NCBI RefSeq assembly: GCF_964194025.1
Contig: NC_134472.1
Coordinates: 22,878,001 to 22,942,000, forward strand
Direction of reading: 5' to 3'
From: Convolutriloba macropyga
Taxonomy: Eukaryota
DNA: 64,000 nt
Below are positions 8,501-23,990 of this stretch, piece after piece. Positions within the stretch are counted from its first letter, which is position 1. Every line of letters begins with the position of its first letter. The position numbers and the translations under genes were made by a program. A model generated the notes under the pieces. That model worked only from the letters and a program-made list of their open reading frames with translations. It was not told where the DNA came from and made no database searches.

Positions 8501-9540
8501 AAATTTACTGAATTGAAATGGTTCATGTGAAATAAAATTGCGAAATTGTAAAGTTCTGTTATTTTGATGAAGGAATACTTCGACCTCGAATATGTGAAGG
8601 GATCTATCAGGCATGCAAAGTCAGGCTAAGATTATTCAAGAAACTTGCTACCAACAGTATCAGACAGTGGTACTCCTATATCAAAAATGATCATTGAAGT
8701 TTTAAAAAACGGAAACGGTATTTATATTTTACTCGTTTAAAGTTTACGGCCTTTTTTATTTTATAATTTTTTTCAATTTGTACTTTCCAAAAGAAATTGT
8801 CCGAGTGTTAAAGAATGCCTGCCTTTCCAATGATATTCAGCGGCAATTTCTTGCCAATGATTTTTATTGCCAAATGAGAATCGGAATAACTGTGTCCTAC
8901 TTAATGCAGTGAATTAGTTTTCATTGTTTTTGATGATTTATTTACCCGATAATTTTACTGGAATAATATATCAATGTTATAAGGTATTGTTTATGTAATG
9001 AAATTGTTTTGAGTGGTTTAACTCTTCGTCAAGAAAATGGGATAAACAAATGTAGCCAGTTTTTTCAATGCCTCCCCCAATTTGATATTGATAAAATTAT
9101 TCTCGCTACTCGAAAGCTGACTTTTATTAACCTTCTAGAGTTGTTGGATAGCTGCTTGTCCGGGGTTATTCTATCATTTTTTCTCTGTGATTGGTTTTCT
9201 TGTTCACTGCTTCCTGGTTTTCGTACTCTGGTTTCACTTTTTTTGCTCTTTAGAATGCAAGCAATAGTGATCCTCTTCAGCGACAGAAGTTGTCCTTTAG
9301 CTGCTCTGTGTGCTTCTTATAATGTTAATTTACGCCTGATCGCTTTTACGTCCTAGACGTTTTGAGTTTTGCGTGATCTACTTTATTCTCCCATTCAATA
9401 CTCTAAGCAGGTTCACTCAATTGGTTCACTTCACTACTGGAATTCAAATTAGAAGGGCATTGAAATTCGCTCCTTTTCAAAATTTGTCTGTAGTAGCCTG
9501 CAATAAGATCGTTTGGATCACCTTTCTGAACTTATTTCAG

Positions 9541-9658
9541 CCCCCCCCCCCCCACCACCACCACCACCACCACTCAAGCAGACTGCGATAGAATCTAGAC
9601 TCGCGCAAGTCCATCAAATGCAACTCGTGTGGTCTTACGCTCTTGTACAAAGGTGTTT
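9541..9658 (+). repeat. Left copy of the ~120-bp direct repeat flanking the Polinton
   Basis: C13-(ACC)n-ACTCAAGCAGACTGCG...AAAGGTGTTT recurs at 23867-23990. Confidence 0.95.
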
Positions 9659-9695
9659 AGTAGTAATAGTTAAGCAAGAGTGGGGGGGGGGGTAA
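9541..9695 (+). CDS. Putative last exon of the secreted-protein gene, interrupted by the Polinton
   Basis: TTATTTCAG acceptor at 9540, phase 1, compatible with the 4885 donor. Encodes poly-Pro-LKQTAIESRLAQVHQMQLVWSYALVQRC; the presumed original ending LKQLS* lies at 23989-24006. Confidence 0.5.
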
Positions 9696-9770
9696 AAGGA
9701 AGTACCTATGTATTAGGATTAGGTATAGCCCATTTTCGCTCAAATTCCAAGGAAGTACCTCACAGCATGA
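9659..9770 (+). repeat. Left terminal inverted repeat of the Polinton
   Basis: AGTAGTAATAGTTAAGCAAGAGT-G11-TAAAAGGAAGTACCTATGTATTAG...GTACCTCACAGCATGA; the part from the G-run onward matches the reverse complement of the right end. Confidence 0.9.
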
Positions 9771-10320
9771 TACCCAAGCTGTTCACACGAGGGGGATTAG
9801 AAAGTTAATCCCTTAATATTAAATTAGGTCATTTACTCATTCCCAAATTGCACTTTAATAATGTATATTTTCAAAGACGTACCTCACAGCATGACACCCA
9901 AGCTGTTCTCTCAAAGGGGATTAGTTAGGTAATGTTTTAATATTAAATTAGATAGGGTGACTCATTTACACTACGTACGGTTTACGTGATTTCGAAAGAT
10001 GTACCTCACAGCATGATACTCAAGCTGTTCACACGAAAGGGATTAGCAAGATAATCCTTTAATAATAAATTAGGATGACTCATTTACAGTTACGTACGAC
10101 TTTTCAAAAATGTACCTCACAGCATGACACCAAGCTGTTCACACAAAGGGGGATTAGCTAGGTAATGTTTTAATATTAAAATAGATAGGATGACTCATTT
10201 ACACTTATGTACAGCTTCCGTGATTTTCAAAACTGTACCTCACAGTATGATACCCAAGCTCTTCACACTAAAGGGATTAGCACGATAGTGTCTTAACAAC
10301 AAACTAATAAGGTCATTTAC
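9750..10320 (+). repeat. Left subterminal tandem array, ~5 units of ~110-125 bp
   Basis: Core GTACCTCACAGCATGAyACCCAAGCTGTTCACAC...GGGATTAG at about 9755, 9879, 10001, 10112 and 10235. Confidence 0.93.
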
Positions 10321-10544
10321 CCACCCATTCCCATATTAACAAAAAAGTACAATTTTTTATTTTTGGTTTTTACAGATTTTTTTACAATTTTAATCAATTT
10401 TTTGTTTAAAATAGTGTTTCACTGTGTCGTTTTAAACTGAAGTTCCAATTTTCCGATTTCAGAAAAAAATGTATTATTGTTTTGAAAATGTCTATTTCTT
10501 ATTTTTTTTAGCCAATCACATAATCTGTCAGATCTGATTTTGGA

Positions 10545-11198
10545 ATGTTGATGCTGAAAAACATTTACGATTCATTTTGTCTTTTTTCTTGGTTGAACAT
10601 AAGTAGCCTAAAAAAAATGCAAAATACTCCAATTCTTCCTTTACTTCCTTCAACATCTTTTCTTTCTACTTTTCATTCAGATTTAGATTACGCTCCTATC
10701 ACGGAAGCATCAATATTTAAAACGGTAGTAACCGATAACAATTTGGAATTATCTTTTGAGGTGGATTGCACTAGAGTAACAATTAAAACTCAGACAACTA
10801 GCTTGACACTTCCGAAGGATTTGTGGAGAACTTTAGAGGCAGCTAGACATCATAACCTCCACCTAGCCGAAGAAAAAATCAACAATTCATTGCTTTCTCT
10901 CCAAACTTATTTTCAAACCATTGAAAAAATTCGAAAAGAACAAGGGTTTCACCCGTTGAAAGACAGCAAAGGAATTATGTTCCCGTACTCTCGTGACATA
11001 AATCACTACGGTGTTTGGTGGGTAGAAGACATGTTCTCCAAGCATGCTGACTCATTTTCTAAAAAACCAGAAGCCTTCAATCTGCCCGATTTCAAAGACC
11101 TTATTCTTCCTCCGATCCAGGAAACTGACAATGAAGAGACTCAATCATCTCATCAAAATATTCCTTTCTCGAACTATAAGTGTTCTCCAATAGAATAG
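10545..11198 (+). CDS. Polinton hypothetical protein (start uncertain)
   Basis: 217-aa ORF inside the element, CCAAT box at ~10512; no family recognised. Confidence 0.55.
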   Translation: MLMLKNIYDSFCLFSWLNISSLKKMQNTPILPLLPSTSFLSTFHSDLDYAPITEASIFKTVVTDNNLELSFEVDCTRVTIKTQTTSLTLPKDLWRTLEAARHHNLHLAEEKINNSLLSLQTYFQTIEKIRKEQGFHPLKDSKGIMFPYSRDINHYGVWWVEDMFSKHADSFSKKPEAFNLPDFKDLILPPIQETDNEETQSSHQNIPFSNYKCSPIE

Positions 11199-11229
11199 TG
11201 AGATAACTCGCTTTTGTTCGATGCTAAAT

Positions 11230-11490
11230 TCACCCTCACGTGACTAAATATAGAAAACTCATCTTTGGCATCACGTGATGTTACTAAAAATAGAAGTGAC
11301 ATAACTATTACGTCATGATGCACGCTCTATTTTCATTGGTTACGAATTATTTTATAACATCTCATTGGATACGAAGTTTATTTTTCGCTACTGTTCTCGT
11401 TCTTACTTAAATTTCATTGGTTCAAGATATCAACCCCTTTCTTGAAGACAATTTATTCATTTGTTTCTTTGCGATTTCAATATTCAGTTA
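11230..11490 (+). promoter_or_regulatory. Putative Polinton promoter/enhancer upstream of ORF 11553
   Basis: Two TCACGTGA E-boxes, a TTACGTCA CRE-like site, three TCATTGG (reverse CCAAT) motifs and a TCAGTT initiator-like motif at ~11484. Confidence 0.45.
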
Positions 11491-11552
11491 CCCTTGTAGA
11501 CCCAAATTTTCTGCTTTAAGAACTTTACATACTTCACATTCTCATTTCACAG

Positions 11553-12302
11553 ATGGATCAAAGCTCTGTCTCTCCTAACTCCAAAAAACCATTCTCCTTT
11601 CCCCTCCGTAAACGAGATTACAAAGGAAAACCAGTTGTTCCCTCACCACAATTGGAATACCACAATGAGAGCATGTTTTCTCTATTTAAAGACAACAACG
11701 ATAAAAAAGACAACACCGACTCAAAACCAAATGAGGAGCACGATGGAAGAAACAACTGTTGGTCCTTTCAAGAATACGGGAACCGGAAGTTTCAAATCAG
11801 CATCCCAGAGGAAACCGTCAACTCAAACTCTAACTGGACTCACTTGAAAGTATTTCGCGAAAATGTGGAAAGTGAATATGTTCTGCATCAATTTCTGATG
11901 CTATCGGCCAGAGAATTGAAGCTTGTTATTGAAAAGATACCTGAGATGATAAAAGAAGCACTACTGTTCGAACCTACTGTAGGTACTGCGAAGCTGGTGA
12001 TTGACGAAACTGTGTTCCAACCAACTGATGTTGAGGAAAAAGCAAAATTTGATGTGTTCTGGGAGGTGAGTGAGACTGCTCGACGGAAGGTGTGTGTAAC
12101 TAGAATATTTTTCCAAGATGACCCGAATCGATGTTACTTCACAATCAAGCTGTTCACACGAGGGAGTGAAAAGGACATTTTTAGAAGGAAATGCTTTCTT
12201 TCGGTCAGAATTGTTGAGATGGAGAAACTACACAGAATGATTGATGAAATTATTTCAGTGCTGAACAAAGTCAAAAATCAAAAAAGATCGCAAAGTGCAT
12301 AA
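11553..12302 (+). CDS. Polinton protein, possibly tandem PC4-like ssDNA-binding domains
   Basis: 249 aa; two similar segments with a beta-strand pattern ending in a helix (RKFQISI...FLMLSARELKLVIEKI and RKVCVTRI...FLSVRIVEMEKLHRMI), reminiscent of PC4. Confidence 0.6.
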   Translation: MDQSSVSPNSKKPFSFPLRKRDYKGKPVVPSPQLEYHNESMFSLFKDNNDKKDNTDSKPNEEHDGRNNCWSFQEYGNRKFQISIPEETVNSNSNWTHLKVFRENVESEYVLHQFLMLSARELKLVIEKIPEMIKEALLFEPTVGTAKLVIDETVFQPTDVEEKAKFDVFWEVSETARRKVCVTRIFFQDDPNRCYFTIKLFTRGSEKDIFRRKCFLSVRIVEMEKLHRMIDEIISVLNKVKNQKRSQSA

Positions 12303-12390
12303 CAGTAATTGTAAATTTTTAATATTGTATGTTGTGATGTTTGTATTTAATCACTTTTTAAAATTTAATGTTTCAATACAGTTGCTTGAT

Positions 12391-12789
12391 ATGAACATTG
12401 AGGAAATTGTAGCGTTAGAGAAAGAAATCAGTAAACTTTTTGTTGGAAATACAAAACGCAAAAATTATTTTTTGGCTGTCTGTCGAAGCTTGAACAAAAA
12501 TGTAGATCTGGATAAAATCAACAGAGAAACTCCGTTTGGGGGACTAATAGGAGTTGGTGACTCAAAGTTAGAAAAACTTCTGAATTGGTCAAAAATTTTT
12601 CGATTACATGCTACATTTCATGATGCCGCAGGATACCTGAAAACAAATCTAAATATTGGCCCTGGATATTGTTACGTTGTTCCATTTTTTAATTCTATAT
12701 TGAATTTTTGCTTCTTGGGACATATAACAGGTCTTGCATATTGTTGTTTTTTGAAAATGTCATCACGATTCCAATTAATCAAAGTGTGA
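12391..12789 (+). CDS. Polinton protein with an H-x3-HD motif (possibly PLA2-like)
   Basis: FRLHATFHDAAG and GPGYCY motifs; likely ATG at 12391. Confidence 0.6.
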   Translation: MNIEEIVALEKEISKLFVGNTKRKNYFLAVCRSLNKNVDLDKINRETPFGGLIGVGDSKLEKLLNWSKIFRLHATFHDAAGYLKTNLNIGPGYCYVVPFFNSILNFCFLGHITGLAYCCFLKMSSRFQLIKV

Positions 12790-12831
12790 ATCATTATTAC
12801 AAAAAGACGAACAAAAATCAGTTGCTCTCTA

Positions 12832-13086
12832 ATGACAGATCATCTCAATCACGCATCTGACTTTATTTTTGATAATAACAATCAGGAAAGACCTCCTTGG
12901 AAAATCTGTGGTCGCACTTGCTCTCGAACAGCTTTTTTGTCAATATTTCAGTGCTTAGTTGTATTAGTACTGCTTCTGTTTTCAATTATTAATCTTATTT
13001 TTGCAAGAACTTGTGACGAACGAACAGTTTGGATTGCTATTCTTTCAAGTGCCGTTGGTTATATACTTCCTAATCCCCGAACATAA
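12832..13086 (+). CDS. Small two-TM membrane protein of a type common in Polintons and related dsDNA viruses
   Basis: W-x2-C N-terminus, two hydrophobic helices, C-terminal GYILPNP; lies immediately upstream of the ATPase. Confidence 0.75.
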   Translation: MTDHLNHASDFIFDNNNQERPPWKICGRTCSRTAFLSIFQCLVVLVLLLFSIINLIFARTCDERTVWIAILSSAVGYILPNPRT

Positions 13087-13087
13087 A

Positions 13088-13828
13088 ATGAACAAAATCA
13101 TTTCAACAAACGAACGAATTTTGATGTATCTTGTTGGTCCTTCCGGATCTGGAAAAACTGTTTTTATCAATGATATGCTACGAATGAAAACTTTTCAGCC
13201 ATCATTTGATCGAATTTTATACTTTTATAAGCACTTTCAGACAATTTACGACATAATGATGCAATCAATTGCAGACATAGAATTCATTCAGGGAGTTGAC
13301 TTTGATTTAATCGATAACTTACCCGCTGACGGCACTAAATATTTACTTATATTCGATGATTCATTGGACATTCTTTCCAAGTCTGAAAAGTTCAACGGAA
13401 TTGCGACAGCCGGTAGACATCGAAACCTAAATTGTGTATATATCAAGCATAATCTCTTCCACAAAAACAAAACTGGACGTGATGCCGAGCTGCAGACTAC
13501 TCACATTGTTTTGTTCAAATCACCGAGAGATGTGCAGCAGATTGATATCTTGGGAAGACAGCTAGGACTCGGAAGACAACTAAAACAGTGGTATGATGAT
13601 GCAACACAAGAACCGTATGGTCATCTTATGATTGATTTGAGACCATCTACACCTGATTTGTTGAGATACTGTTCAAATGTAACATCATTTCCCTCAGATT
13701 TCTTCGTACCGAACAGTCGTGCTCGTATTACTGATATTAATTATAAACGCACAGAACTATTATACTCTGAAGCTCTTTCGGAATCTCAGCAAGAAATTTC
13801 AACCAGCTTTCCTTCTAAATTGTCCTAA
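13088..13828 (+). CDS. A32/FtsK-like genome-packaging ATPase
   Basis: Walker A GPSGSGKT, Walker B LLIFDD, arginine motif GRHRN, FKSPRD and PYGHLMIDL. Confidence 0.95.
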   Translation: MNKIISTNERILMYLVGPSGSGKTVFINDMLRMKTFQPSFDRILYFYKHFQTIYDIMMQSIADIEFIQGVDFDLIDNLPADGTKYLLIFDDSLDILSKSEKFNGIATAGRHRNLNCVYIKHNLFHKNKTGRDAELQTTHIVLFKSPRDVQQIDILGRQLGLGRQLKQWYDDATQEPYGHLMIDLRPSTPDLLRYCSNVTSFPSDFFVPNSRARITDINYKRTELLYSEALSESQQEISTSFPSKLS

Positions 13829-14060
13829 AGAGTTCATCAGATTTCTCTGTGAGTGTATTGTAAACTTGATTGAAGGAAACCTCACAGGAGTAAGAAAAAA
13901 TCAGTTTGTTCGCTTCCAAAAACAACTTAGAAAGCTCACGTCAAAATCAACAACCCTCAATTCCAGAAGACTTATATTGGGCTCGAAAGCTGGAATAACA
14001 ATATTAGGTTACATATATCAACCTTGTATGAACAAATTTTCAACTTTCTTCAATGAGTGA
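13719..14060 (+). CDS. Conserved basic Polinton protein overlapping the ATPase 3' end
   Basis: FLCECIVNLIEGNL...LRKL...RRLIL pattern typical of the ORF that follows the Polinton ATPase; no upstream in-frame ATG, so the start is possibly mutated. Confidence 0.7.
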   Translation: MLVLLILIINAQNYYTLKLFRNLSKKFQPAFLLNCPKEFIRFLCECIVNLIEGNLTGVRKNQFVRFQKQLRKLTSKSTTLNSRRLILGSKAGITILGYIYQPCMNKFSTFFNE

Positions 14061-14523
14061 GGTCAAAAAGTTTGTTCTTGTTCCAAAAGAACTGTGGAAG
14101 TCCAGAAAAGGGAAATTCCCGGAACCCTCCAGCGAGATCTATAAAAAGGAAGAAACTGTTTTTCCAGTTATCAAAAAAGCGAAAGAAGAAATTAGTTCCG
14201 AAAAAACCGATCGTCCACCTAAAGAACTTAAGACAGATCTGGAATTTCACTATAAGAACAGTCCCGAGACATTGGAAACTTTGAAAGAAATTTACGAAAA
14301 CAAACGATTGAAAGTTTCACTTTCCAATACAATTATTGTTGACAACGTTGACACAGGAGTTGATATAAAAACATTCCTTCATTCAATCAAATTGAAAAAC
14401 GCTCCAGTTGATCCAAACTATTTCCTAATTCTTAAAGTTCTAAATCTGAGACCACATCTGGTTAGAAACAACATTTTGAGGACACAGTATGGCTCAGACT
14501 GGTTCAATTACAGTATCAGATAG
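14053..14523 (+). CDS. Polinton hypothetical protein
   Basis: 156 aa, overlaps both neighbours as in compact viral gene arrays; KKFVLVP N-terminus. Confidence 0.7.
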   Translation: MSEVKKFVLVPKELWKSRKGKFPEPSSEIYKKEETVFPVIKKAKEEISSEKTDRPPKELKTDLEFHYKNSPETLETLKEIYENKRLKVSLSNTIIVDNVDTGVDIKTFLHSIKLKNAPVDPNYFLILKVLNLRPHLVRNNILRTQYGSDWFNYSIR

Positions 14524-15433
14524 AATCAAATTGCAGAAGTTGTATAAAGGGAAGGGATCAACAGCTTTCGGTTCTATCGACAACCTAACAAAATCAAGTG
14601 GAATAAGTCGCGAGAAAGTTACAGAATTTTTACAATCAAAAGACTCTTATACGAAGTACAAAGGGATCGGAAAAAAATTTCCCCGGCTAAATGCGCATGC
14701 TCGCTATATTGATGAGATTTGGTGTTTGGATCTTGCACAAATGGATAAACTATCACAATGGAACCGAGGTATCAACTTTTTACTCGTTACTGTCGATGTT
14801 TTTTCTCGATTCTTGCCAGTAGAAGCATTACGAAGCAAAGGAGCAGAGGGTGTGAAAGCAGCTTTTATCAAAATGTGTTCGAAAAAGAACGAACTCAATT
14901 TCCCGAAAAAATTATGGCTAGATCAAGGAAAAGAGTTTTTCGGAGATATGGCCAATTTCTGCGAGGATGTGGGAGTCAAATATTATCACACTTATAGTGA
15001 AACAAAAGTAGCTTTTGGCGAGAGAGCTATACGAACCCTGAAAAACTTAATTTACCGCTACCTGGAGGAAAAGGACACATTATCTTACATCAAAGACCTG
15101 CAAATGTTTGTTGACATCATCAACTCTAGAATAAATCGAAGTATTGGTTTGGCTCCCAAAAATGTAGTAAATGCTGACTTTTTGACTGTCATGTACAAGC
15201 GGATGAAACTACGAAAAAACAAAAAGCCTAATTTTAAAGTAGGTGATAAAGTTCTGTTGGTATTAGTAGGGCACAATTTTCGAAAAGGATATAAGCCTCA
15301 CTATACACATGAAATTTTCCTAATTCGAAAAATAAACACTTTGGCTCCTTTCCCGACTTACTTTGTTGTTGACCAGAAAGGAGAAAACATTGATGGAATC
15401 TTTTACGAGCAAGAATTGTCAAAAGTTAAATAA
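14489..15433 (+). CDS. Retroviral-like (rve) DDE integrase of the Polinton
   Basis: WCLDLAQMD, VDVFSRF, LWLDQGKEF, ERAIRTLK, FKVGDKV, FRKGYKP and FYEQEL motifs; no C-terminal chromodomain seen. Confidence 0.96.
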   Translation: MAQTGSITVSDRIKLQKLYKGKGSTAFGSIDNLTKSSGISREKVTEFLQSKDSYTKYKGIGKKFPRLNAHARYIDEIWCLDLAQMDKLSQWNRGINFLLVTVDVFSRFLPVEALRSKGAEGVKAAFIKMCSKKNELNFPKKLWLDQGKEFFGDMANFCEDVGVKYYHTYSETKVAFGERAIRTLKNLIYRYLEEKDTLSYIKDLQMFVDIINSRINRSIGLAPKNVVNADFLTVMYKRMKLRKNKKPNFKVGDKVLLVLVGHNFRKGYKPHYTHEIFLIRKINTLAPFPTYFVVDQKGENIDGIFYEQELSKVK

Positions 15434-15460
15434 TCATTTTTGAATTAGTCGCGCTAGAAA

Positions 15461-15799
15461 ATGGACGGTTACAATCTGCCTTATTTTAAAGGAGTTCCTC
15501 GTCAGAGAGGGCGTGGCTTTGGAGCCTTGGCAAGAACAGTCGCTAGAACAACTCTCCCAATTCTCAAGAAATACGTTTTACCTGCAGCAAAAAAAATTGG
15601 ACGAGATGTAATCGAGTCAGCCATTCCCGAAATTGGAGGTGTTTTATCAGGACAGACTTCAATTAAAAAAGCAGTAAAGAAGACTGCGAAATCAACAATA
15701 CGAAAACAAGTTGGTGGTGGTATGAAAAAGAGGAAAAACACGAGACAAAGTATCGTTCGGCAAAAAATTCGGAAAGACTTTCTGATGAACCTTGACTAA
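15461..15799 (+). CDS. Basic virion core protein (adenovirus pVII-like)
   Basis: QRGRGFG and QVGGG protease-site-like motifs, amphipathic helices, K/R-rich tail. Confidence 0.75.
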   Translation: MDGYNLPYFKGVPRQRGRGFGALARTVARTTLPILKKYVLPAAKKIGRDVIESAIPEIGGVLSGQTSIKKAVKKTAKSTIRKQVGGGMKKRKNTRQSIVRQKIRKDFLMNLD

Positions 15800-15840
15800 T
15801 CATTTTCCCAAACAAACGTCACAGAGTACAGTCAAACATC

Positions 15841-16639
15841 ATGAATTCGTTTTATCTTGAATTAGTGTCCAACGCTTCCTCTCAAGTTTATCCTCAAAAT
15901 ACAATGGCTTCATTCACTAATTTTCTTCCCGACAAAATTGAACTGGATGGATCTTGGGAAGTAGCTTTAGTCGAAGTATCATATCCCGGTATATGTTATA
16001 ACGTTGAAGGAGGATTGATGAACTTTCACTATGATGAGAAATTTAAGCATGTCTTTGCCATTCCACCAGCAGTTTTTAACTCTATGGATGAATTTGTAAA
16101 GAGTCTTACAGATATTCCCAAAAAAAGCACGACATCCCAAAAACTTAGATCCTCAATTTTCCATCAACATCGACAAAAAAAGTCGAAGACTAACTTTTTG
16201 CAATAGAGAATCTCAAAATGTATCATTCAGCAAAAGTTTGGCTGCTAACTTGGGCGTTGAAGCTGACAAACCTGTTATGCCTTATTCGAAAAGATCATAC
16301 AACACCAAGTCCTGGGCAACGGCTGATCTCCCTTTTGATATTACTGGAACACATACAGTTTTACTCTACTTGGATATAGTTGAACCCAATTCAGTCGGTG
16401 ATGTGAAATGTCCTCTTCTACGCTCCTTTCCATTCAAACACCGAGAGTTCCATAATGATGAGATTAAGAGATCGCAAGTTCTGAGTTATCGCAGTTTCGA
16501 ACACTTGAGATTCCATAAAGTAATCAAATCGAGTTTCCACAGTATCCATGTAGAATTAAGAAACGCTGCTGGACACCTTGTTCCCTTCTTCCCTATTGGT
16601 CAAGTTCAACTTACTTTATTATTCCAGAAAAAATCTTGA
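15841..16639 (+). pseudogene. Minor capsid protein (penton), +1 frameshift
   Basis: FYLELVSNAS...NTMASFTNFLP...WEVALVEVSYP in one frame; DIVE...VGDVKCPLLRSF...IHVELRN...VPF in the next. The second frame is open from 16100, so the shift is most likely in the A7 run at 16120-16126. Confidence 0.88.
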
Positions 16640-16679
16640 TCATTTCCTCAATTATCATTATAAAAAACGGTCGGCTAAA

Positions 16680-17918
16680 ATGAATTCCTTATCTCACTCT
16701 ATGCTCGACTTTTTTGGGAAAGTTCCAATTTTAGACCCAATTCTTTGGTCCAATGAACAACAAATATTTCCAACAAATTCCTTAAACGAGTCAACAATCG
16801 AATTTCAATTGGAAACTGATCGTAATATTTTCACTGACTTGCGATCTACTCGATTATTCATCAGAGGAAGGGTTATTAAAGGCGATCGAACACGTTTGGA
16901 TAATGCCGAAGAAACATTATTGGTAAACAATGCTCTTCATTCACTTTTTTCTAATTGCGAAGTCTATCTAAACAATGAACAAGTTCACAGTGCCAATTCT
17001 CTTTATGCTCATCAAGCTTTTGTTTCTGCTGAGTTTTCAGGTACAAAAGGAACGAAGGAAAGCTTGTCTCAATGTCAAGGATATCGATACGAGATTGAGC
17101 CAAACGGTTTTAATAAAAGACCGTTTACAGATGTTGTTTTTCAAAAAGATAAAGATGAGTTTACTTTTTACGGTCCGTTGGCAATAGGTCTATTTGCTTG
17201 TGAAACTTTACTTCTCCCAAATGTCATCCTCAGACTGAAGTTGATCCGGTCTTCTCCAGCGTTCTATATGATCGATACTGGTGGGCTGAACTCTGAGGCC
17301 TTAATTTTGGAAGCTTGCCTTTTTACTAGACAGGTAGCAATCTCAGATAACTGGATGAGAAGTTTCAAAAGCAGACTGCTTCGAGAACCTGCCATATTTT
17401 ACTATAATGAAGAGCTTCCAAAGACGTTTATTATTCCCGCAGGACAGAACCAGTTTATACAAGAAAATATATTTTCAAACAAACCAATTCGAATGATTGA
17501 TATTGCTATGAATCTAAATAATGAGTTCAGTGGAACATACAACACGAATCCGTTCCATTTTCGTAAATTTGGTCTTCGGCAAGTTAAAATTGTGCGTGGG
17601 AATCAAACTATAGTCAACTTGAAAACAGAAAATCACGTGAGAGCTTATGCTGAAACAATGAAAGCACTCAAGTTTGATGATGACGGTCCTAACATTCAAT
17701 ACAAGGATTTTGAAAACCATTTTCATTTATTTTTCGATCTTACTTCAACACAGGAGGCCAATGTCGAAATGCATTTTCCTGATGTAGTTGGAGCAGGAAT
17801 TCGTTTAGAGCTCTACTTTGCTAACAATTTGAGCAATACTGTAGAATTATTTGTTAGTGGTGAACGTATAAGTTCAATTGCAATTGATAAGGAGGGATCA
17901 GTCACCAAAAATGGATAA
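16680..17918 (+). CDS. Major capsid protein (double jelly-roll hexon)
   Basis: LDFF...IEFQLE...NNALHSLFSNCEVYLN...LLPNV.LRLKL.RS...NPFHF...FDLT motifs of Polinton MCP; likely ATG at 16680. Confidence 0.93.
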   Translation: MNSLSHSMLDFFGKVPILDPILWSNEQQIFPTNSLNESTIEFQLETDRNIFTDLRSTRLFIRGRVIKGDRTRLDNAEETLLVNNALHSLFSNCEVYLNNEQVHSANSLYAHQAFVSAEFSGTKGTKESLSQCQGYRYEIEPNGFNKRPFTDVVFQKDKDEFTFYGPLAIGLFACETLLLPNVILRLKLIRSSPAFYMIDTGGLNSEALILEACLFTRQVAISDNWMRSFKSRLLREPAIFYYNEELPKTFIIPAGQNQFIQENIFSNKPIRMIDIAMNLNNEFSGTYNTNPFHFRKFGLRQVKIVRGNQTIVNLKTENHVRAYAETMKALKFDDDGPNIQYKDFENHFHLFFDLTSTQEANVEMHFPDVVGAGIRLELYFANNLSNTVELFVSGERISSIAIDKEGSVTKNG

Positions 17919-18305
17919 TCAACAACTCTTACATGTTGTCAACAGGTTCCCACACCTAAAGTTCAAATACCTCGGTTCCTTCCCTGCAGATCTTCGACCA
18001 AAAAATTTACCTACAAACACGTTTTGTATAATCAACATAGATCCATCTACTCAACCGGGCTCCCACTGGATTTTGCTTGCGAATAAGAATGAAAGTTGTT
18101 CTACGGTGATTCGATGGGAGAAGTTTTGGAAAAATATGGCATCAGGACAAAAGCAAACTTTGGTTCATTAGTACAGGAGAAACTCGAAGATTCAGAATTG
18201 TGTGGTTTATATGCTATTTATTTTGCCCATGTGTTATTTTCCAAAGTCTCATCTAAATATTTAAATGATTTTCATATATTGAAGTTCTTTGCTGATGTTT
18301 TGTAA
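17911..18305 (+). pseudogene. Adenain-like cysteine maturation protease, frameshifted
   Basis: GSFPAD...IINID...PGSHW in one frame, FYGDSMG...CGLYAIYF in another; a 1-nt loss near 18093 (GAAAG) would explain the shift. Confidence 0.88.
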
Positions 18306-18545
18306 GTTTTGAAAACCAAAATCTTGAAATTTTTAAACAGTAATCCGTAAAATGTTGCAAATGGTTTTCAAAACTTTCTATTGAGGTTTTGTAATTTTGT
18401 ATTTTATTATTTGTATGTGTATTTGTATCTAATTCAGTTATTTCAAAAAAAAGGTCTTTTGTTGAAAAGAGATTTTGGTAGGAAAACTGTGAATTAAAAA
18501 AGAGGCGATATATATATATACATATATAAGACTAAGGAAAACGAG

Positions 18546-21210
18546 TTATAAATCTAAAGGAGTAGTGTGAATACCATCTTCACAGACTTTACGCTTGGGA
18601 TAAAAATATGACAGTCCCACTTTCTTTAGTTCATAGGTACAAACTTTCTTGTTGTCAACAACTCTGAAGCCACGATTTGTTGAATAAACTCGCTCCTCAT
18701 TGAAAAGAACTTTTCTATACTTGTTTAGGGGCTCCTCAATGTTGTTCTTGTTGAGTCCTTTACTTGATAGTTTAACTGTGTCTGTTTCCTCATCGTAGCA
18801 GCAGTACGTCTTTGAACAAAGAGCAATCATTTCAGAGCATCTAAATTCTTCCTTAAAAAGTCCCGGAGTTCTCTTGTCAAAGGCAGCATGTTTCCTGCAA
18901 CATTCTCGTGGGAAGAAATTGCTGCTAGAGTTTGCTGCAAAGTTATCATTGCAGTCGCTCTGTCTCATCCAGTACCACACTGATCGCATTTCTGGTCGAA
19001 TGATGTCTTCAATTTTTTCCTCACTAAGGGCCATGTAGAGACTGTCGGTATCCATTTCGATGAGTTCGTACTTGTTCTTATCACAGAAAGGGGTGAAGAA
19101 GTTGTATTTAAGTTGTAACATGGTGAGTTTGGCGTACTGGAGGATGAAGAAGCCTACAATGATTGGTTCTTTATGATCGATACGCGACTTGCTCATTTCT
19201 ACCTCATATATGTGCTCTGGTAGCTCATTCATAGTCTTGAAAAACCTATTGTTGATAAATTTGTCCACCTGTGATCCTTTCACGTACTTGGTATTCGTAT
19301 GTCGACTACGGTCCATGATCTGATATCCATACGAACTGTTTCCAATCAGCTTCATTGTCTCCGCAACGACTGTTGACTCCCTGTTCTGGTCTCCTTCGCG
19401 GCGGGCATCGACAACATTCTGAACAAATGTCTCAAAGCAGCGTCGGGGAGTGTATTGAAGAAACCAAAAGACGTCTTTCAGGATCACACCTTTTTCTAGA
19501 TAAAATAACAAAAGTGGCGTGATAACTGGTCCTCGTTCAAGCTTGAAACTGGAAATGAGCTTTTTTCTGGGTCTGGATAGTAATTTGTTGCGTTCTGCAA
19601 ACTCTTTCATATGGTCCCCAATATCATCTCGTCCCACTTCACAATTCTTGAAAATTGGAGGAACGTCTTCAAAGTAAGGATACATTTCCTCTGGGACTTC
19701 AAGACTACAATCGACGACACCAAACAGTTCTCCACGTTGAATTTTCTCAATGAGCGAGTGCTTGTTCATCGCTGGTTGGAAGGGATAATTTGACTTGAGA
19801 AAGTCTTCAACCCCATTTGTGTTTTTGCTCCTCCACTTCTTCCATTGACACTCCCAGATCTCTTCAACATTCAACCCCAATCCCTTCAGGTACTCTCTTC
19901 TATCATTGTCACGTTCTCTCCGCTTCAATCCGCTTTCAATGTCCTCGAAGAGAAGCGGTTTTTCCTCTTGACACGGACAAAAATGAAAGAAGCAACCCAT
20001 CGCTTCAAAAACCGTGTTGCAATGGTTACAAAACCCATCAACTAAATAAGGACCGAGCTTCTTTTGTTTCTTGTGTGTGAACTGGGTTTGTATTTTACAA
20101 TTGGGATGAACCTGTTGGAAGTAGTCCATGACCTGCTGTTCAAAGTAGCTTCTCCAGTTCCTGTTCGGATGAAATTTTTCAGTCTCTTCATTGTACTCCC
20201 ACTTTGTATAGGGTCCTGTTGGCATCTCTTTTGTCATGGAAAAAGGGTACAACTGACTGGCATCTATTCCGACGATGGACTTGCAAACGTTTTCTGACTC
20301 TCGAATTTTTGTTCCACCAACTTTTGCATACCTTGTAAAGATAATTGAGGGTCCCCCTGTTAGCCACTTTCGAATGTAATTACCATATTCTTTATCCTTC
20401 TCACAAAACGGAAAAAAAGCTGCATCTGTTGACGAATGAAGGAACCTGTTTGCCAAGTTGGGAAGAGTGTAGCCCAACTTCAACATGTCTACTTGTCTTG
20501 AGTGGTAAAAACTGATCATTTTCTTCATAGCCTCAAGTGTAGGTTCGACATCTTTGTTATTGTACCACATGAGGAAGTCACGAAACGTCTGCATACCTCT
20601 TCTTTCCCATATATTTTGGAGCTCCGAGTAATTTTCTTCGGCATTTTGTGGAACTTTCTTGAGTCTCAACTTCTTCAAAATTTCATCCTGCTCCATTCCA
20701 CCGTTTTTCAATTCCACAAACTTATTGTAATCGACTGAAAGAACGTTGTGATTCTTCAACTTGCTCCAAAAGCTGTCAATTGGTGGCAGTTGGGATACAT
20801 TCAACTTCTCAATACTGTCGAACCATTCATAGGGGAAGAAACCTTTCTCTTCACTCGCTCCATAGGCTTTTAGGAAGTTATCCAAAGTTGTCGCTCCTCC
20901 CAGGAAGTTTAAAATGTCCAGAAACTGTAAACCAAGAAAATTCATGCCAATATATTTATTCCCCATTCGAATCACTTTAGGAATAACGTTTTTTTCTATT
21001 AAGAGGTGATGCAGAAGATACTCTTTGATTAAGTTCAAATCGTACCTCGAACTGTTGAAACCAAACACAGGAATGGTGCTGTAATAGTGCTCAAAATCTT
21101 GTCTCAAGTTTGATAACATCTTGAGCTCACATCTCAGTCTCTGAATTTCAAGGTCTTCGTCTTCCTCGCCGTCAGGTTCCGCCTCGTTATCAATTAAGTC
21201 TTCCGCTCCG
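18546..21210 (-). CDS. Protein-primed family B DNA polymerase, N-terminally truncated, with a VSR-like nuclease insertion
   Basis: ExoII FNSSRYD, ExoIII YNNKDV, DASQLYP, KLIGNSSYG and MDTDS. The frame stays open upstream of M(21119) (GAEDLIDNEAEPDGEEDEDLEIQRLRCELK) until it meets the repeat array at ~21210. ExoI and the terminal-protein region are absent. Confidence 0.95.
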
Positions 21211-22112
21211 GTAAATGACCTTACTGAATTGTTAAGAGATTATCTTGCTAATCTTTTTCGTGAGAACAGCTTGGGTATCGTGCTGTGAGGTATATTATTG
21301 TCAATTGACATTTTCAAAGTGTAATATGTGAAAAGGTAAATGACCTTACTAAGAGATTATCTTGCTAATCCCTTTCGTGAGAACAGCTTGGGTATCATGC
21401 TGTGAGGAATATCTTTGGAATTTGACATTAGTAAAGTGTAGTATGAGAAAAGGTAAATGACCGTACTGATTTGTTGTTAAGGCACTATCTTGCTAATCCC
21501 CCTCGTGTGAACAGCTTGGGTATCGTGCTGTGAAGTACATTATTGGAATTTAAAATTAGAGAAGTGTAATAAGGGAAAAGGTAAATGACCTTATTATTTT
21601 GTTGCTAAGTCATATTCTTGCTAATCCCTTTCGTGTGAACAGCGTGGGTATCATGCTGTGAGCTACGTCTTTGGCATTAGTAATGTGTAATATGAGAAAA
21701 GGTAAATGACCGAAATAGATTGTTAAGGTTTTATTTTGCTAATCTCTGTCGTGAGAATAAATTGAGTTTCATGCTGGTTCGAAATGAGTAGTTATTAAGA
21801 AATTCCCCCTCGTGTGAACAGCTTGGGTATCGTGCTGTGAAGTACATTATTGGAATTTAAAATTAGAGAAGTGTAATAAGGGAAAAGGTAAATGACCTTA
21901 TTATTTTGTTGCTAAGTCATATTCTTGCTAATCCCTTTCGTGTGAACAGCGTGGGTATCATGCTGCGAGCTACGTCTTTGGCATTAGTAATGTGTAATAT
22001 GAGAAAAGGTAAATGACCGAAATAGATTGTTAAGGTTTTATTTTGCTAATCTCTGTCGTGAGAATAAATTGAGTTTCATGCTGGTTCGAAATGAGTAGTT
22101 ATTAAGAAATTC
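21210..22112 (-). repeat. Right-arm tandem array of the same ~120-bp unit in inverted orientation, with an internal 307-bp duplication
   Basis: Repeated GGTAAATGACC...CTAATCCC..CGTGwGAACAGCTTGGGTATCrTGCTGTGA; 21498-21805 is nearly identical to 21805-22112. Confidence 0.93.
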
Positions 22113-22348
22113 AACTTCTTATCTTTTTTACAAACGAAATTTTATTCAGCTGCGGGAAACATTGTCTTCCTTTGTTAAATTTGAGACTCAAATAAGTTGT
22201 AAATTACACTTAATTACACTTAATTTTTCATCCGGGGTTCGAGTCCGGGTGGGATCGTCTTTTGCTAAAACTGATTTTGTGTTAATAAATTAGGATGTGA
22301 TTACGTTATGATCCATTATAAATATGATTAAAATCTAAGTCATCTCAA

Positions 22349-22420
22349 GTACCAATGGTTCAGTGGTAGTATCTGAGACTCCCATCCGGGGGTCCCGGGT
22401 TCGATCCCGGGTGGGGTCCT
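22349..22420 (+). ncRNA. tRNA-Gly(CCC)-like sequence / Pol III type-2 promoter inside the Polinton (not a canonical tRNA)
   Basis: A box TGGTTCAGTGG (22356-22366), CT-CCC-AT loop, B box GGTTCGATCCC (22398-22408) with a paired T arm; acceptor and anticodon stems pair poorly. Confidence 0.65.
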
Positions 22421-22452
22421 CTTGTGTTGTTCAATGGTTTCTCGGCTGAAAA

Positions 22453-22618
22453 TCTGGTGTACATTGGCGAGCATTAGCCGGCGGGGTTTTCTATATAGAG
22501 TCTGATAGTTGCATGGGTATATGTGATAGGTAAGACGGGAGTTGACACATAGCGCATATCACATATACTCTAAGTGGCTTTCAGACTCGCAGAAAACCTT
22601 CAGCCATCAATGTCCAGA
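22453..22618 (+). ncRNA. Long imperfect RNA hairpin downstream of the tRNA-like element
   Basis: Pairings 22483-92/22591-600, 22498-505/22581-88, 22507-12/22574-79, 22515-28/22557-70 and 22453-67/22607-18; non-Watson-Crick pairs within these helices are G-U on the + strand. Confidence 0.6.
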
Positions 22619-23137
22619 AGCCCTAATGAAACTATTTTCTTTCCATTAAAAAACCCATTTTTTCCGAAATTTGACACCTATTGTACCCCCACATCATCCT
22701 TAGAATGATACCATTCATCAGGAATAAACTGTATTCAACAACTAACATCTATTATGAAAAAAAAATTTGAAACTCTAAACTTAAAACACAAGTGTCTTCA
22801 GCTCTAAATTATGCACATTTCATTAGCAGATTGAATTCTGTCAGATATTTTGTTTTTCTGTATAGAACACCAAACTGCTGCGAGTATGTCGAAAGACTTT
22901 TGAAATACAAAACAGAAATACTCACTTGTAAGTTTTCCCAATTTCATTTTCGACTACACATAGTAGTTTGATTATTGTCAGATATTTTTTTATTCTGTAC
23001 AGATAATCAAATCACTAGGGGTAAGTCGAACCAGCGACTTTGGGGTTTGTTTATGTTTTTGGTTTTTTTGTGAACCGTCTGGTCCTTTTGTTATTTTTTT
23101 TGGTTTTTTTTTATTTTTTTTCTATTTTTAGGCTGAT

Positions 23138-23362
23138 CTAAATCAGATCCAGATCAACTAAGTTCTTGTTGAGCACCTTGCAAATGGCCTTGCAGTTTCT
23201 ATATTTAACTGCTCGGCCAGTGCGTTTGGCTACTTGTTTGCGAACACCGGGACGGCCCCCGGTTCTCTTAGCCATTTGAGGCCTGCTGAATTTGGGAGTG
23301 GGAGGAGAACCTCCCCAGTCAGAGACTGGTTCCTCCTTGATAGGTGTAGTTGGCAAACTCAT
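23138..23362 (-). CDS. 74-aa Polinton protein with a histone H3-tail-like segment and a SUMO consensus motif
   Basis: RPQMAKRTGGRPGVRKQVAK compared with H3 [22 protein letters not shown]; IKEE motif; AAAAATG start context, TATA and initiator upstream, AATAAA downstream; GC-richer than its flanks. Confidence 0.72.
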   Translation of the reverse strand: MSLPTTPIKEEPVSDWGGSPPTPKFSRPQMAKRTGGRPGVRKQVAKRTGRAVKYRNCKAICKVLNKNLVDLDLI

Positions 23363-23405
23363 TTTTAGCAAAAATTCAACAACAATTTTGTTAACAAAAG
23401 AACCA

Positions 23406-23440
23406 GAATGAAATGTGATTTTGTGTTGCAGCTATTTATA
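23406..23440 (-). promoter_or_regulatory. TATA box plus initiator for the H3-tail-like ORF
   Basis: Minus strand TATAAATA (23440-23433) about 30 nt upstream of TCATTC (23411-23406). Confidence 0.62.
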
Positions 23441-23785
23441 CTCATCCCAAATACACAAGTGTGCATGGATTAATGCTCGGAGATTAACTCACACCAAAAC
23501 TTTTACATTTTTAACCAAATTCTCACCCCCACACAGTATGAGCCATCTATCATAACAGTATGTCATTTATTAACACCCACACAAAAATGAACCATTCAAT
23601 AATTTTTAATTAAAACACACTGTTTATCTATATGAGTTTCTCATCTTAGTTCATTTAAATCACTACAAGCACTTAATCCCCTAATGACTAAAACAATCTT
23701 TTCTCACGCTACAGTAAAACTTAATCCTTTGTAAACAAAATATTGACAAGAAAAAATGGACAAAAGTGACTACGAAAATACCGGT

Positions 23786-23880
23786 GAGTCATGCTGTGAG
23801 GTACATCTTTGGAAATTGGAGGGTAGGAGGCTATACCTAATGTTAATACATAGGTACTTCCTTTTACCCCCCCCCCCCCA
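23786..23880 (-). repeat. Right terminal inverted repeat, lacking the outer ~22 bp
   Basis: CATGCTGTGAGGTAC...GGCTATACCTAAT..TAATACATAGGTACTTCCTTTTA-C13 is the reverse complement of the left end, but the expected terminal ...TTGCTTAACTATTACTACT is absent. Confidence 0.88.
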
Positions 23881-23990
23881 CCACCACCACCACCACCACC
23901 ACCACTCAAGCAGACTGCGATAGAATCTAGACTCGCGCAAGTCCATCAAATGCAATTCGTGTGGTCTTACGCTCTTGTACAAAGGTGTTT
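23867..23990 (+). repeat. Right copy of the ~120-bp direct repeat flanking the Polinton
   Basis: Matches 9541-9658 except for two extra CCA units and one C/T substitution (caactcg vs caattcg). Confidence 0.95.

Follow-up and report, generated by a model that had tools for sequence, protein, structure and literature searches.

How Polintons handle the chromatin of their hosts is little known, and their accessory genes are mostly uncharacterised. One such gene in Convolutriloba macropyga raises the question whether a Polinton may carry an imitation of the histone H3 tail. The window analysed, i.e. the whole stretch of 64,000 nt taken from contig NC_134472.1, contains a minus-strand ORF of 74 codons (23138–23362) in the pPolB-side arm of a Polinton, where no other gene lies closer to the terminus. 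According to the original prediction, this is a stand-alone gene with its own promoter and polyadenylation signal, whose product would act as a decoy for the writers or readers of H3K9, K14 and K18.

The host element (9659–23877) is a defective copy of a Polinton/Maverick, with pPolB and a retroviral-like integrase; inverted terminal repeats and a 6-bp target duplication are seen in sister copies. The 3′ part of pPolB lies on the minus strand (18546–21119) and is labelled after a 1452-codon ORF in the sister copy C635; Pfam gave no polymerase match for the 857-aa part present in the window. On the plus strand (13088–18305) follow the genes for an ATPase, an integrase, a basic core-like protein (15461–15799), capsid-like proteins and a protease, assigned by Pfam (Pox_A32, E=2e-8; rve, E=2e-8; a weak Peptidase_C5 match at E=0.075) or by position. 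The capsid-like ORFs gave no family match in Pfam, and the core and capsid labels rest on position and the usual Polinton layout. The window copy lacks around 3.3 kb, including a 192-aa ORF and the 5′ part of pPolB, as well as the right terminus, and its penton-like and protease genes carry frame breaks. A direct repeat of around 118 bp flanks it on both sides (9540–9658 and 23872–23989), and at the site of the missing right terminus a C-rich tract joins this repeat.

The complete arrangement is seen in three full-length sister copies (C1, C13b and C15; 17.2–17.6 kb) bearing the gene, all three of which show AGTAGT ends and exact 6-bp target duplications. Their order from the terminus is the 74-aa gene, with its ATG around 540 bp in, a repeat array of around 125-bp units, the 192-aa ORF and pPolB. 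The 192-aa ORF (L058:8046–8624) is absent from the window copy and gave no convincing match in a Pfam search. Its N-terminal ~135 aa are common to at least 150 genomic places, often as inverted pairs close to Polinton termini; it moves independently of the 74-aa gene, with C3389 carrying the 192-aa ORF alone. Derived structures were also found, i.e. a tandem array of 10 terminal segments with the gene, two of them still open (G000:C9:47,094,000–47,111,000), and fold-back derivatives with a gene-bearing arm at both ends (G000:C11:7,543,424–7,556,346; C12:32,915,848–32,930,231; C12:40,651,000–40,662,700). Two fold-back elements of a second family, family B, were inserted as units, given their near-exact 6-bp target duplications with one mismatch each.

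The 74-aa ORF is a real protein-coding gene under purifying selection. In a genome search for copies of the gene, in which 35 of 35 candidates were scored, all eight copies of a young subfamily (A1) were open and 91–100 % identical, while only 3 of the 14 copies of an older subfamily (A2) were open. Comparison between the two subfamilies gave a dN/dS of 0.20–0.30 in 21 of 21 A1–A2 pairs (p between 2e-6 and 5e-4). No purifying signal was seen for pairs inside either subfamily; within A1, the differences are few and amino-acid changes are not depleted, which is expected after insertion and therefore uninformative. Differences gather at third codon positions (27 of 46 and 24 of 45). Stops interrupt every one of the six frames except the annotated one, and the idea of a non-coding or opposite-frame constraint was rejected. 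The view of a stand-alone, conserved Polinton gene, open in young copies, with a low dN/dS and with homologues elsewhere, is thus borne out.

At the nucleotide level, the ORF (23141–23362) is 79 % identical to its counterpart in C635 (G000:C635:34,306–34,527), with a dS of around 0.67, while the 300-bp non-coding flanks are less diverged between the subfamilies than the ORF (89 % vs 79 % identity). This gap points to either constrained flanks or recombination-driven allele swapping. The window copy itself carries G at residue 17 (23313), where all seven sister copies have E; since four read runs show the sister letter only, G17 must be either private to this copy or an error of the assembly. 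The same four runs behave as DNA, with even cover of the flanks and around tenfold depth over the gene.

The signals named along with the ORF were all located in the sequence. On the minus strand, these are a putative TATA box, TATAAATA (23433–23440), an initiator-like TCATTCT (23405–23411), likewise putative, which would place the +1 position around 31 nt from the TATA box, and a weak AATAAA (23110–23115) within an A-rich tract. The TATA box is present in four of the five upstream regions examined for the gene group of the window's own family (group A) and has a TATA-like counterpart in group B; older copies retain both TATA box and initiator, and AATAAA was found in 4/7 downstream regions checked.

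The gene belongs to an optional module of around 1.7 kb (22080–23790, ends approximate, minus strand), which extends from the terminal segment to the subterminal ~125-bp repeat array. In all 14 module-less arms that were aligned, the terminal 115 bp and the repeat array lack this block between them. Of the best 150 pol matches, more than 90 reach an identity of 83 % or higher with the window pol, and among the matches at this level seven belong to gene-bearing copies. The other family-A copies sampled (20/20) had neither the gene nor the 192-aa ORF, and in 17 of these 20 the terminus was seen 1.3–2.6 kb from pol. On two pol trees the module requires five and three changes, i.e. it was repeatedly gained, lost or recombined, and its gain and loss are independent of pPolB.

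Inside the module lies a degenerate tRNA-Gly-like sequence (22348–22419, plus strand) with Pol III A- and B-box-like motifs. It was called by ARAGORN at a relaxed threshold only, with no call at the default threshold and no Rfam match, and 19 of its 21 genomic matches (77–100 % identical) lie beside gene copies. A partial second copy is found near 22229–22262. It may be a Pol III element that serves as a barrier or yields a VA-like RNA; alternatively, it may be what remains of a captured tRNA or SINE.

Homologues outside family A fall into two further groups. Family B is a second Polinton family with a different terminus and a pol of around 40–60 % identity. Its homologue is located around 620 bp from the element end and is also directed inward, i.e. 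in the same subterminal slot, adjoining the terminus but facing the 3′ end of pol. All five copies of family B in the genome are truncated or frame-broken, and an open version of 95 aa is present in another ENA record. Over the 21 codons shared by A and B, pS is 0.76 and pN 0.16 (p=1.5e-5), a comparison which includes a serine codon-family switch. A profile search over 1.84 billion proteins returned seven matches, i.e. four family members and three repeat proteins, and one match opened the third group (C), comprising six ENA records (P0010, P0015 and P0019–P0022) that encode 122–140 aa on contigs of 604–885 bp, around the size of single transcripts. P0008, P0009 and P0011 were discarded as chance matches inflated by repeats; L156 and the C8 match were set aside as spurious.

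Beyond these groups the searches gave nothing credible. No further homologue was found in 911,730 six-frame residues from other Polinton stretches, in 11 pol-upstream stretches of more distant families or in 20 stretches surrounding 192-aa ORF relatives. Viral and metagenome contigs gave no related loci and phages a single match at E=0.8; a longer or fused homologue was not seen among 7999 scored candidates, which is weak evidence. The 74-aa protein of the window hit no Pfam family at E 0.1, and 11 homologues gave two weak and unrelated Pfam matches. In the PDB, the sequence search returned ribosomal uS2 at E ~6 only and the profile search nothing, and the ESM Atlas leads, all below 0.9 (HTH proteins 0.88; RAD51-interacting 0.78), were rejected. 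Judged by sequence comparison, the gene therefore appears to represent an undescribed microprotein family without a credible Pfam, PDB or Atlas match.

Two parts of the protein are constant between A, B and C, i.e. residues S19–T34 and the last 20 residues, with a near-invariant core and diverging flanks. The 16-residue core (23261–23308) holds S/T-P sites of the proline-directed type, followed by Q-x-A-K-R-[ST] in its first occurrence (Q29–T34), and 15 of its 16 residues are identical between the window copy and P0019 of group C. A second Q-x-A-K-R-[ST] (Q43–T48; 23219–23236) follows 14 residues after the first; older group-A copies retain it, although both the residue at x and the codons have changed. 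A1, A2 and C each have two occurrences of the motif and B a single one; the strict pattern has a single occurrence in the 911,730 background residues. Upstream of the core lies a predicted psi-K-x-E SUMO consensus (I8-K9-E10-E11; 23330–23341), which reads IKEE in 8/8 young copies, VKDE or VKNE in most older copies and VKWE in group C. The SUMO site thus holds for groups A and C but is missing in B, while the IKEE, the S/T-P sites and the two Q-x-A-K-R-T-G stretches agree with the original description, as does the absence of a histone fold. The SUMO, kinase and export patterns used here are matches to consensus sequences.

AlphaFold predicts residues 1–53 without structure, probably disordered, followed by an amphipathic helix (54–70), with a mean pLDDT of 64 and a pTM of 0.23. 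The block of the C-terminal helix and hydrophobic tail (23141–23203) reaches a pLDDT of 69–86 and shows a dN of 0.04–0.09; in young copies, the leucine spacing of the helix resembles that of a CRM1 export signal.

The likeness to H3 is marginal as judged by alignment. Against host H3 1–40, the best local match is ungapped and covers 22 residues with eight identities (score 38), which gives the window copy p=0.012–0.022 with the query shuffled and 0.07–0.09 with H3 shuffled, uncorrected for the choice of ORF or target. A score of at least 38 was seen in 1/107 basic background windows. Six genomic relatives gave p=0.03–0.47 (standard gap costs). In a further test with p=0.014 for the window copy, five database relatives were at p=0.24–0.55, and the element's own basic core-like protein reached a score of 40 (p=0.013). 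The core-like protein thus resembles H3 as well as the 74-aa protein does.

The alignment originally proposed survives as this marginal ungapped match, but its list of kept H3 residues mixes two registers, and a joint match of TGG11–13 and RKQ17–19 requires two gaps that compensate each other. Without gaps, K9 stands opposite R33, K14 opposite P38 and K23 opposite R47, while K18 faces a lysine in the young subfamily only and I or V in older copies. Across six register rows, K9 faces R in all six, K18 is matched in two and K4, K14 and K23 in one each. Only A1 has the full RKQ17–19, group C has lost GG, and nothing in H3 corresponds to SPPTPKF, which makes up half of the conserved core. Since R takes the place of K9 and only the young subfamily has RKQ17–19, a decoy for H3K9, K14 and K18 is unsupported: the family keeps no lysine at H3 acceptor positions. 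PDB searches to E=10 returned no histone. As an aside, the host encodes a divergent H3 variant (L040; G000:C5:67,543,000) that has T in the place of S10 and carries an insertion around residue 31. What survives is suggestive, in that the motif kept and duplicated by selection appears to be the H3-like part.

On this basis, a narrower form of mimicry can be considered, in which the repeated Q-x-A-K-R-[ST] imitates H3 4–10 (KQTARKS) with R at the K9 place. Such a pseudo-substrate would, owing to this R, occupy writers or readers of the H3K9 region unmethylated and blunt silencing. When the four host core histones were scanned with a matrix derived from all repeats of the motif, the best site was H3 4–10, one group-C repeat reads KQTAKRS, the Q-x-A units of group A are 14 apart like Q5 and Q19 of H3, and Q5, G12, R17, Q19, A21 and R26 match in 3/3 group-A sequences tested; moreover, the motif is selectively kept and duplicated, with the SUMO site adjoining in A and C. 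However, the matrix result (p=0.03–0.11) is close to that of the core-like protein on the same test (0.03–0.14), and the whole-protein scores, the un-H3-like SPPTPKF half and the PDB searches speak against it as well. In addition, the R8 position holds K, and H3K9 enzymes generally require R8. We consider this explanation unlikely, though with a real chance of being right. Compared with known viral histone mimics, i.e. influenza NS1 (ARSK), adenovirus pVII (AKKRS) and bracovirus H4 (PMC6028506), the family likewise shows a short basic H3-tail-like motif in a probably disordered protein, and its A-K-R-[ST] comes near the AKKRS of pVII. It differs in lacking a lysine in H3 acceptor context, in a motif that is not terminal and in a similarity no better than that of a basic-protein control; those mimics either retain a lysine open to modification or have been characterised by biochemistry (PMC6028506), which sets them apart from the 74-aa family.

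The same arginine can be read differently, i.e. as an anchor for the H2A–H2B acidic patch, as in viral peptides such as LANA, IE1 and foamy virus Gag (PMC9040877), which would make the protein a nucleosome tether and a candidate patch binder. The R is near-invariant in a short, probably disordered peptide, two motif copies would add avidity, and the M30…R33 spacing equals that of M6/R9 in LANA and M483/R486 in IE1 (PMC9040877). Yet the residue before the anchor is K, compared with a hydrophobic residue or Thr in LANA and IE1, the M is present in some repeats only (elsewhere T, V, K, I or A) and the invariant Q is left unexplained, making a tether quite improbable; in addition, the 74-aa protein is a stand-alone microprotein, while the viral peptides are tethering tails of large proteins (PMC9040877). 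A role in the virion core or in DNA condensation, as for pVII or pX of adenovirus, would fit a small, basic protein (16 K+R vs 5 D+E), and pVII itself has been called an H3 mimic for its AKKRS (PMC6028506). We regard this as more improbable still, as the gene lies outside the virion module, on the opposite arm and strand, in an element that already has a basic core-like gene, while most copies do without it and groups B and C carry acidic stretches. The loss of GG in group C points in the same direction, as does the lack of a conserved adenain-type cleavage site, judged against its usual consensus. Least probable is a degron or kinase decoy, in which E-G…S-P-P-T-P would sequester a ubiquitin ligase, kinase or phosphatase of the host as a phosphodegron or docking motif, with the basic part serving localisation only. 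E-G and S-P-P-T-P-K-F do match the basic motif in conservation, and group C repeats W-S-P-P along with it, but A and B/C are two residues apart in the spacing from E-G to S-P-P, and several unrelated motifs fit equally well.

The reading that we prefer, and to which we give an even chance, is that of a small, mostly disordered nuclear regulator that acts via short linear motifs and is not a histone copy. It would be expressed early from its own TATA promoter, enter the nucleus via its KR pairs and be switched by proline-directed phosphorylation (SPPTPK) and SUMOylation at K9, while the core would dock onto one host nuclear or chromatin factor. Docking would make the nucleus more permissive for the element, as with the motif-based early proteins of small DNA viruses. 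A regulator is supported by the same slot relative to two different termini (540 and ~620 bp) and by the structure-less, low-confidence N-terminal part with one helix. On the other hand, short motifs match by chance. KR is a minor-site motif of importin-alpha (PMC3946659), and group A carries KR-x12-KRxxR, sharing its KR pairs with bipartite NLSs; compared with the classical form (PMC3946659), the second cluster departs from K-K/R-x-K/R, B and C do not preserve the spacing and the conserved stretch exceeds what an NLS needs. An NLS also leaves the invariant Q three residues before KR unexplained.

The closest parallel to such a regulator is given by the accessory genes of Polintons and adintoviruses ('Oncoid', 'Adintoc'), among which Starrett et al. 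2021 locate the motif-bearing regulatory 'Oncoid' genes upstream of PolB (PMC8502044). Oncoids are defined by LxCxE or by a CR1 motif with paired CxxC (PMC8502044). The group-A gene is likewise located upstream of pPolB in an animal Polinton, and both are small, short-linear-motif proteins outside the core gene set; the motif set is different, as the A, B and C sequences contain neither LxCxE nor paired CxxC. In a search of open-access papers by title and beginning of abstract, no histone-tail mimic of a Polinton was found; the main text of PMC11738798 contains neither 'polinton' nor 'adintovir', and the term 'histone' is absent from PMC11131425.

Considering that the gene travels with the tRNA-like sequence, it is tempting to speculate that the module is a swappable anti-silencing cassette, combining a SUMOylatable H3(4–10) pseudo-substrate with a tRNA-like B-box barrier or VA-like RNA. 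We hold this to be unlikely; if true, it would give Polintons their first described decoy of a histone tail. Near-identical natural elements with and without the gene exist. Should the partner of the core belong to the H3K9 or SUMO silencing machinery, the family would represent a transposon-borne histone decoy, while importin-alpha as the only partner would make it an ordinary nuclear accessory protein.
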